Shown: positions 63,063 through 63,558, numbered from the stretch's first letter. The stretch is 64,000 nt of DNA from Escherichia coli (GCF_003334335.1 NZ_QOWQ01000026.1); one strand, 5' to 3'. Translations and numbers: made by a program. The notes: a model not told the origin generated them from the sequence alone.

Positions 63063-63250
63063 AAATCACTAAAGAACGCCCAAGAGCATGTGTTTTCTTT
63101 AGTAGAATCAAACTCTTGAATTTCCATGTCATATGAAAATCGGCAAAGTTCATATGTAACAAAGTGTCCCAACCATGCCCCAAAATGCCCCACAACAGAC
63201 ATTTTTGTCCCATGCATGCCCCAAAAAAATCACTTCCCCTCACCTTGACA

Positions 63251-63294
63251 CTGTTTATACATACAGTTAAAAATAATACTGTACATAACCACAG
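63251..63294. promoter_or_regulatory. Tandem LexA boxes and promoter of the dinI-like gene
   Basis: ctgt-ttatacat-acag (63251-63266) and ctgt-acataacc-acag (63279-63294), both perfect CTGT-N8-ACAG; TTGACA -35 at 63245-63250; AGGAGG RBS at 63298-63303. Confidence 0.8.
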
Positions 63295-63309
63295 TTACAG
63301 GAGGGTGTT

Positions 63310-63558
63310 ATGCGTGTTGAGATCTATATCGCTAAAGAAAAAATCAGCAAAATGCCAAAAGGTTCTGTTCCTGCCCTGCAGCAAGAGATGCTGCGACGTG
63401 TCAGTAAACGTTATGATGATGTAGATGTGATCGTTAAATCTGCCAGCAATGATGGACTCACCATTTTAAGAGCTGTAGATAAAGAATCCGCGCACGAATT
63501 TGTACAGGAAACACTGCAGGAAGCCTGGGAAACCGCTGACGACTGGTTTATTCAATAA
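63310..63558 (+). CDS. DinI-family SOS protein (phage-borne dinI paralog)
   Basis: ORF track 82 aa: [31 protein letters not shown]...[17 protein letters not shown] shares the MR.E..IAK N-terminus and QETW.ADDWF C-terminal signature with chromosomal DinI; not the chromosomal dinI locus. Confidence 0.8.

Follow-up and report, generated by a model that had tools for sequence, protein, structure and literature searches.

The dinI gene of Escherichia coli K-12 (b1061) is a core gene that adjoins pyrC, and it is preceded by one LexA operator, ACCTGTATAAATAACCAGTA, which lies at −39 from the ATG and overlaps its −10 hexamer. [quoted passage not shown] LexA, UmuD and lambda CI share the groove of the RecA filament, and all filament binders use this one groove (PMC9926225). 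DinI homologues are likewise borne by prophages. In Salmonella, the dinI homologues of Gifsy-1, -2 and -3 stand behind a LexA box and head an operon that also contains a small antirepressor gene and irsA (PMC3121763). LexA control of prophage dinI homologues has been demonstrated there: the locus is LexA-dependent and DinI accumulates after mitomycin C (PMC3121763), and the homologues are induced 4.6- to 23-fold with nalidixic acid (PMC8072944). When the Gifsy dinI homologues were removed by non-polar deletion, induction was not measurably changed (PMC3121763). The Tum protein of coliphage 186 (split in PSP3 and Fels-2) is also the product of a LexA-repressed phage gene with DinI-like sequence (PMC3121763).

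The locus considered here lies in a window of 64,000 nt, i.e. the whole stretch of E. coli DNA that was analysed, and consists of a gene for a DinI-like protein behind two predicted LexA boxes at the end of a prophage. The same cassette is carried by BP-4795 (ORF85, in yecE), by CP-933V, by Stx1 and Stx2 phages of O157, O145, O111 and O121 and by the PhiR (ECOR) phages. The proteins of these Stx and other lambdoid phages exhibit 63–91% amino acid identity to that of the window, and the copies share the TTGACA promoter, the two LexA boxes, the ribosome-binding site and the position, in which the gene is directed inward from the tail-fibre end with no other gene between it and the att junction. 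The window differs from them by allelic and mosaic differences only, and in the downstream cargo, which is eaaC and eibC in the window and nleA, nleC, espK or tail-fibre genes in the Stx and lambdoid phages. Those copies are annotated as dinI, as DinI-like or as ‘RecA filament binding protein DinI’, and the cassette carries the dinI annotation in BP-4795 and dozens of Stx phages. Klebsiella phage P18-100 has an att-adjacent copy that is 71% identical and has one box. The Gifsy genes are more distant (∼40% identity, with a single box) and are found inside the phage genome, downstream of the replication genes, whereas the gene of the window stands alone at the prophage end. The chromosomal DinI has the same length and fold as the protein of the window, with the RecA-contact residues conserved, but the K-12 gene belongs to the core genome and that of the window is prophage cargo.

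The gene is real and its first reading from sequence was correct; accessory genes of this kind are known from prophages, and this one is widespread and has already been annotated. We propose that it would act as a ‘moron’, an accessory gene that is self-contained and under SOS control, at the tail-fibre/att end of a P-EibC-type lambdoid prophage in yecE. The molecular outline, in which the gene is repressed by LexA and its product binds RecA, is in our judgement probably right, as read from the DNA and protein sequences; our confidence in any physiological statement is much lower.

The yecE junction and the conserved cassette

ORF listing and alignment identify the window as E. coli aspS–yecD–yecE′ followed by prophage P-EibC, with aspS, yecD and the first 30-odd codons of yecE as the left-hand ORFs. 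Host yecE sequence stops at ∼63047–63050, and from ∼63047 on the window exhibits 100% identity to the end of P-EibC, a prophage of E. coli ECOR-9 (GenBank AF151674). The junction was placed by alignment to a yecE-integrated Stx2 phage with an annotated 21-bp duplication, and by phage records that begin at this point. The prophage DNA in the window amounts to 955 bp only, and the dinI-like gene lies immediately inside the inserted element, as the sequence-only reading had it. The yecE frame (62952–63062) is cut by the prophage after ∼31 codons, and the truncated frame enters the phage DNA for a few codons before a stop. AF151674, the original GenBank record of P-EibC, carries no annotation for the dinI-like ORF.

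The stretch of prophage DNA that separates the att junction in yecE from the dinI promoter (63047..63244, plus strand) is presumed to be an attP-derived arm and lies outside the conserved cassette; the sequence 5′ of the TTGACA hexamer varies with the type of att. Five TG(T/C)CCCA repeats with ∼10-nt phasing occur in this arm at 63165, 63175, 63185, 63206 and 63216 (span 63165–63226), and BP-4795 and the yecE-integrated Stx2 phages have ATGCCCCATTG repeats at the equivalent place. Both sets of repeats are probably integrase arm-type binding sites. The dinI promoter begins ∼20 bp past the last TG(T/C)CCCA repeat.

Similarity to other phages starts at 63243–63245, i.e. at the −35 hexamer, and ends at 63553–63558, at the stop codon of the gene, and the flanks on both sides of the cassette differ from phage to phage. 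The 314-bp cassette was found, at megablast sensitivity, in 762 of 5,426 complete E. coli genomes (14%), in which its gene is always annotated ‘DinI-like family protein’. Positive genomes carry a median of 2 copies and a maximum of 5. A protein search returned 133 phage records with a homologue. In 21 of the 23 complete phage or prophage records among the matches listed, the cassette lies <1 kb from a record end. Where chromosomal prophages were inspected, no other gene lies between it and the junction, be this at yecE, at yehV/btsS (including CP-933V of EDL933), at ssrA or at an sbcB-type, Stx2c-phage site. The orientation in these examples is always inward and the location always at the tail-fibre end, with 225–280 bp between the ATG and the att core; this positional rule was seen in ∼35 examples, and over genomes at large the position as first gene inside att at the tail-fibre end is to be read as ‘almost always’. 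In BP-4795, int is at the opposite record end on the same strand, and the circular order is therefore int, attP, dinI, all co-directional. In phage 1720a-02 (194–1601), the dinI cassette begins at ∼1286, just before the end of the integrase gene at 1291, and no room is left for att between the two; the int/att layout of this phage must therefore differ from that of the others.

The cassette is of modest practical interest. It is present in most Stx-phage types and in 14% of complete E. coli genomes, many of which have more than one copy, and it may affect the RecA-dependent induction of toxin-carrying prophages. A description of the constant position flush with the att arm was not found in the searchable literature, nor was one of the two-operator layout (the chromosomal and Gifsy dinI genes have one operator). 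The tandem operators and the place beside the att arm are details within an element type that is already known.

The DinI-like protein and its predicted action on RecA

The ORF at 63310..63558 (plus strand), the stop codon of which forms the 3′ edge of the cassette, encodes 82 amino acids and corresponds to WP_016238065.1, listed in RefSeq as a ‘DinI-like family protein’. Its assignment to the DinI family, which had been made from the ORF, is confirmed by significant profile matches to Pfam PF06183 (E 4.8e-17, model positions 1–63 of 63, residues 16–80) and to PHROG 189, ‘RecA filament binding protein DinI’ (E 8.9e-27). The match to the solved DinI structures 1GHH and 7YWA, the latter being DinI complexed with the RecA filament, runs end to end, with residues 1–81 aligned to 1–79 (E 3.4e-11). 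The AlphaFold model, obtained with an eight-sequence alignment, has a pLDDT of 88.7 and contains strands at 2–8, 39–45 and 49–53 and helical segments at 9–14, 19–31, 58–74 and 76–79. This predicted model shows the three-stranded sheet and two helices of the DinI fold, the C-terminal helix being acidic, and Foldseek aligns it to 7YWA_A and 1GHH with TM scores of 0.80–0.83 and an rmsd of 2.2 Å (next matches, E > 0.03).

The residues equivalent by alignment to those that contact RecA are M15, L23, W73, W79 and F80 for the pocket and E26, E71 and D78 for the acidic face. Seven of the eight are identical to E. coli DinI and the remaining one is a conservative L→M replacement, which supports the earlier suggestion that the protein may modulate RecA filament activity. 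On these grounds we infer that the protein would bind RecA filaments. Overall identity to E. coli DinI is 40%, and the score against the NCBIfam DinI equivalog NF007893 is 63.3 bits, below its 111-bit cut-off; the protein is therefore a paralog (‘DinI-like’) and no duplicate of DinI, the chromosomal gene of which lies outside the window, and a score below the cut-off does not guarantee functional equivalence with DinI.

In an undamaged cell, LexA dimers on both operators, i.e. in the promoter spacer and at the start site, would shut the promoter off. On DNA damage, RecA filaments would form, LexA would cleave itself and the promoter would fire, with the strong ribosome-binding site then yielding the 82-amino acid paralog. 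The paralog is predicted to sit in the RecA filament groove as E. coli DinI does, such that F203 of RecA loop L2 would insert into the pocket of M15, L23, W73, W79 and F80, and E26, E71 and D78 would face the K232/R243/K245 patch of RecA. Since this groove is shared with LexA, UmuD and CI-type repressors, occupancy would modulate filament stability and the slower co-protease reactions, namely cleavage of UmuD and of the phage's own repressor. By analogy with DinI, filaments may be stabilized and the slower cleavages preferentially hindered. The type of repressor was taken from the genome of JNEC-KY204, because the window holds just 955 bp of the prophage. The near-identical yecE prophage of JNEC-KY204 (99.7% over the junction region) has a LexA-family (self-cleaving, CI-type) repressor, and its induction would hence depend on the same RecA groove.

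It is conceivable, although we consider it doubtful, that this att-adjacent, doubly LexA-repressed DinI paralog of lambdoid and Stx prophages serves as a dedicated timing device for prophage induction. Were this so, the two high-affinity operators would delay the protein to late, severe SOS, and the protein would either compete with the CI-type repressor for the RecA groove, acting as a brake, or lock filaments in an active state, acting as a commitment step. The 2–5 copies per polylysogen could then set the dose-response of Shiga-toxin phage induction. A related speculation exists in one paper on an Stx phage, in which the dinI-like gene, ‘if expressed’, would limit induction (PMC8456039). 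As a weaker addition, the invariant position of the gene next to the attP arm could link excision to LexA occupancy or to the firing of the promoter.

The main target may instead be sought in phage competition or counter-defence rather than in SOS tuning for the host, where competition or counter-defence would mean that the protein would damp the RecA-dependent induction of rival prophages or alter RecA on ssDNA that is sensed by defences. Such a role would fit the multiple copies of positive genomes, which are typical of polylysogens, and the groove common to all RecA-filament binders (PMC9926225), and in one preprint the Zorya II defence worked with altered efficiency when DinI was expressed (PMC13192584). 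These points are circumstantial; the proposal extends our main explanation, that of an SOS-controlled RecA-modulating accessory gene, and is not separated from it by sequence, and under LexA control the protein would be absent from an unstressed lysogen when a superinfecting phage arrives. We therefore regard competition or counter-defence as the main function as improbable.

Promoter and predicted LexA operators

All promoter elements are on the plus strand. The −35 hexamer TTGACA (63245–63250), identified by direct reading and by promoter scan, coincides with the 5′ edge of the conserved cassette, and is followed after an 18-nt spacer by the −10 hexamer AAAAAT (63269..63274); the alternative −10, TAAAAA at 63268–63273, gives a 17-nt spacer. 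The scan scores TTGACA-18-AAAAAT at 10 of 12 consensus matches, and the element is predicted to be a near-consensus sigma-70 promoter, though with an only moderate −10 hexamer. The AAAAAT is invariant across all aligned cassettes. LexA box 1, CACTGTTTATACATACAGTT, occupies 63249..63268 (core CTGTTTATACATACAG, 63251–63266), and box 2, TACTGTACATAACCACAGTT, occupies 63277..63296 (core CTGTACATAACCACAG, 63279–63294). From the position of the hexamers, box 1 therefore fills the spacer between −35 and −10 and box 2 lies over the expected start, as the predicted transcription start at ∼63281 is covered by it. A Shine-Dalgarno sequence, AGGAGG (63299–63304, direct reading), lies 5 nt ahead of the ATG. 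The −35 hexamer, the two perfect CTGT-N8-ACAG boxes and the strong ribosome-binding site that the sequence-only reading had described are thus all present exactly where it placed them.

The K-12 dinI operator overlaps the −10 hexamer, whereas the two boxes of the window flank it. The K-12 operator lies just upstream of the ribosome-binding site and is the positional counterpart of box 2, box 1 being extra. K-12 dinI, Gifsy-1 and Klebsiella phage P18-100 each retain one box, from which it follows that two operators characterize the lambdoid cassette of E. coli.

The 64-kb window contains 4 sites of the pattern CTGT-N8-ACAG where 0.68 would be expected, and none of 100 shuffles gave as many. The yebG operator is one of the two matches besides boxes 1 and 2. 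For scoring, we used a 20-nt LexA weight matrix made from 28 published E. coli operators and not from a curated file, at least one training entry (yebG) being off by a base. Of the ∼64,000 positions in the window, box 1 ranks first (24.5 bits), followed by 42321–42340 (22.0 bits), which is the yebG operator on the minus strand, 18 nt upstream of the yebG ATG, by 57582–57601 (20.6 bits), the ruvA operator, and by box 2 in fourth place (18.7 bits). The fifth rank falls to 12.5 bits, and only 9 positions reach 10 bits or more. The yebG and ruvA operators serve as internal positive controls, although both are in the training set. Scored in this way, the two boxes behave like real operators and do not drop below threshold. 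The heterology index is ∼3.5–4.0 for box 1 and 5.1 for box 2, within a range of 1.0–9.4 for the sites of the same 28-operator set.

In 12 of 13 E. coli prophage cassettes, both boxes are at fixed positions (−61/−62 and −33 relative to the ATG), and box 1 takes the form CTGT or CTGG ... ACAG. Every cassette with the promoter retains the box 2 pattern CTGTA..A.AA..ACAG. The median p-distance is 0.10 for the 30 nt from −35 to −10 and 0.20 for box 2, and pS for the window paired with other copies is 0.22–0.58; the promoter/operator region thus diverges far less than synonymous sites. The predicted promoter is accordingly overlapped by two CTGT-N8-ACAG sites, one in the spacer and one over the predicted start, that are conserved among diverged homologues. 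From their predicted placement, these are classical repressing positions, and LexA repression of the cassette through both boxes is the predicted outcome.

A contrasting reading holds that the palindromes are chance matches or relics rather than working operators, and that the gene is constitutive or transcribed by read-through from yecD–yecE′ or from int across attP. Certain comparisons point this way, since box 1 of BP-4795 is without its CAG and the close homologues in Klebsiella phage P18-100 and Gifsy-1 have one box. The gene is also co-directional with int in the circular phage and with yecD–yecE′, the transcription of which is directed into the prophage toward dinI, so that additional read-through into the cassette is possible. 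Chance matches or relics are difficult to reconcile, however, with scores that equal those of the proven operators in the window and the scarcity of positions at or above 10 bits, with the retention of CTG-N10-CAG in both places by 12 of 13 cassettes even though synonymous divergence reaches ∼58%, and with the placement of the boxes in the spacer and at the start site. We therefore consider it very unlikely that the boxes are non-functional.

In the searchable literature, we found no reports of expression, LexA binding or RecA binding for this cassette. The EHEC transcriptome and proteome papers on SOS induction list the chromosomal dinI only, or excluded repeated prophage genes, and one preprint on radioresistant EDL933 deals with the chromosomal dinI.

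Downstream region and diverged copies

Of the features of a moron, the cassette shows a predicted promoter of its own and sharp mosaic boundaries, and its candidate terminators fold no better than shuffled sequences. A consensus scan gave the hairpin GGGGAGTcggaaaACTCCCC with a weak T tract (63656..63675, plus strand) as a candidate dinI terminator, which is unconvincing: its folding z of −0.47 is no better than that of shuffles, and it falls beyond the 3′ edge of the conserved unit. The same applies to a second hairpin at ∼63792–63830. The sole significant hairpin is the eaaC terminator on the minus strand at ∼63877–63916 (−17.6 kcal/mol, z −3.3). An Rfam search of 62950–64000 at E≤1 for structured RNA returned nothing but a spurious miRNA hit (24 bits, with a gathering cut-off of 93). 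A sib-like retroregulatory RNA formed by the LexA palindromes was also considered and dropped, as the stems are only 4 bp.

The convergent gene with its 3′ end at ∼63917 is eaaC, encoding an S6-family (S6/SPATE-type) autotransporter of P-EibC, and the window ends within it (63917–64000, minus strand). An assignment of this minus-strand ORF end to a Lom/Ail gene was rejected in favour of the 3′ end of eaaC. Beyond eaaC, the phage continues with eibC, tail-fibre genes, lom and J; eibC, which is past the window in the same prophage, is an immunoglobulin-binding adhesin gene.

This arrangement bears on a last possibility, that the gene is part of a LexA-controlled antirepressor switch, as with Tum of 186 or Gifsy dinI-gfoA/gftA-irsA, where the SOS product binds and inactivates the phage repressor. 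A link between DinI-like sequences and antirepressors does exist in 186, PSP3, Fels-2 and the Gifsy phages (PMC3121763). The dinI homologue of Gifsy-1 precedes a small co-directional ORF, which is the antirepressor (PMC3121763), and then an irsA-like gene, and the PHROG 189 profile is Tum-sized, with 151 positions. However, the antirepressor activity of Tum (146 amino acids) is in its non-DinI half, and the protein of the window is without such a half, since its 82 residues match DinI end to end and positions 71–149 of the 151 in the profile, i.e. the C-terminal half, leaving no extra domain. No conservation extends past the stop codon, and each phage has a different gene downstream, usually a convergent one such as eaaC here. 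The interval 63559–63916 was searched for a partner gene and contains ORFs of 24–64 amino acids only, on either strand, the three longest of which (36–64 amino acids) have no PHROG match. Neither a fused antirepressor domain nor an adjoining, co-transcribed antirepressor gene is therefore seen, and the closely related JNEC-KY204 prophage has a LexA-family self-cleaving repressor. The predicted anatomy thus largely refutes an antirepressor switch, which we consider very improbable.

The JNEC-KY204 prophage carries further cargo. Between Q and the lysis genes (10328–12720 of the prophage), minus-strand genes encode a nucleoid-associated protein and a 404-amino acid hypothetical protein, and near the early region (1473–3177) are genes for an SPFH-domain protein and a ParE-like toxin. 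All of these genes may serve defence or accessory functions.

Among 11 cassettes (55 pairs), the median dN/dS of the dinI-like gene is 0.18 (range 0.04–0.28) with dS up to ∼1.1, values which indicate that the gene is under purifying selection. Certain copies are decayed or altered. The copy of strain PA2 (ydfJ site) is 80 amino acids long with a replaced 5′ end and no LexA box, that of BP-4795 carries a CAG→CAA change within box 1 as well as W73R in the predicted RecA pocket, and that of the O111:H11 ssrA prophage has an internal stop codon. From these copies, the gene looks dispensable in some phages.

The promoters of the cassette are of two types. In type A, box 1 is CTGT...ACAG and the leader is GTAGAGGGA, whereas in type B, box 1 is CTGG...ACAG, one additional base is present ahead of box 2 and the leader is ACAGGAGGGTGTT. 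The promoter of the window is a hybrid that combines an A-type box 1 with a B-type box 2 and leader. Together with similarly mosaic coding regions, this hybrid points to recombination within the cassette.
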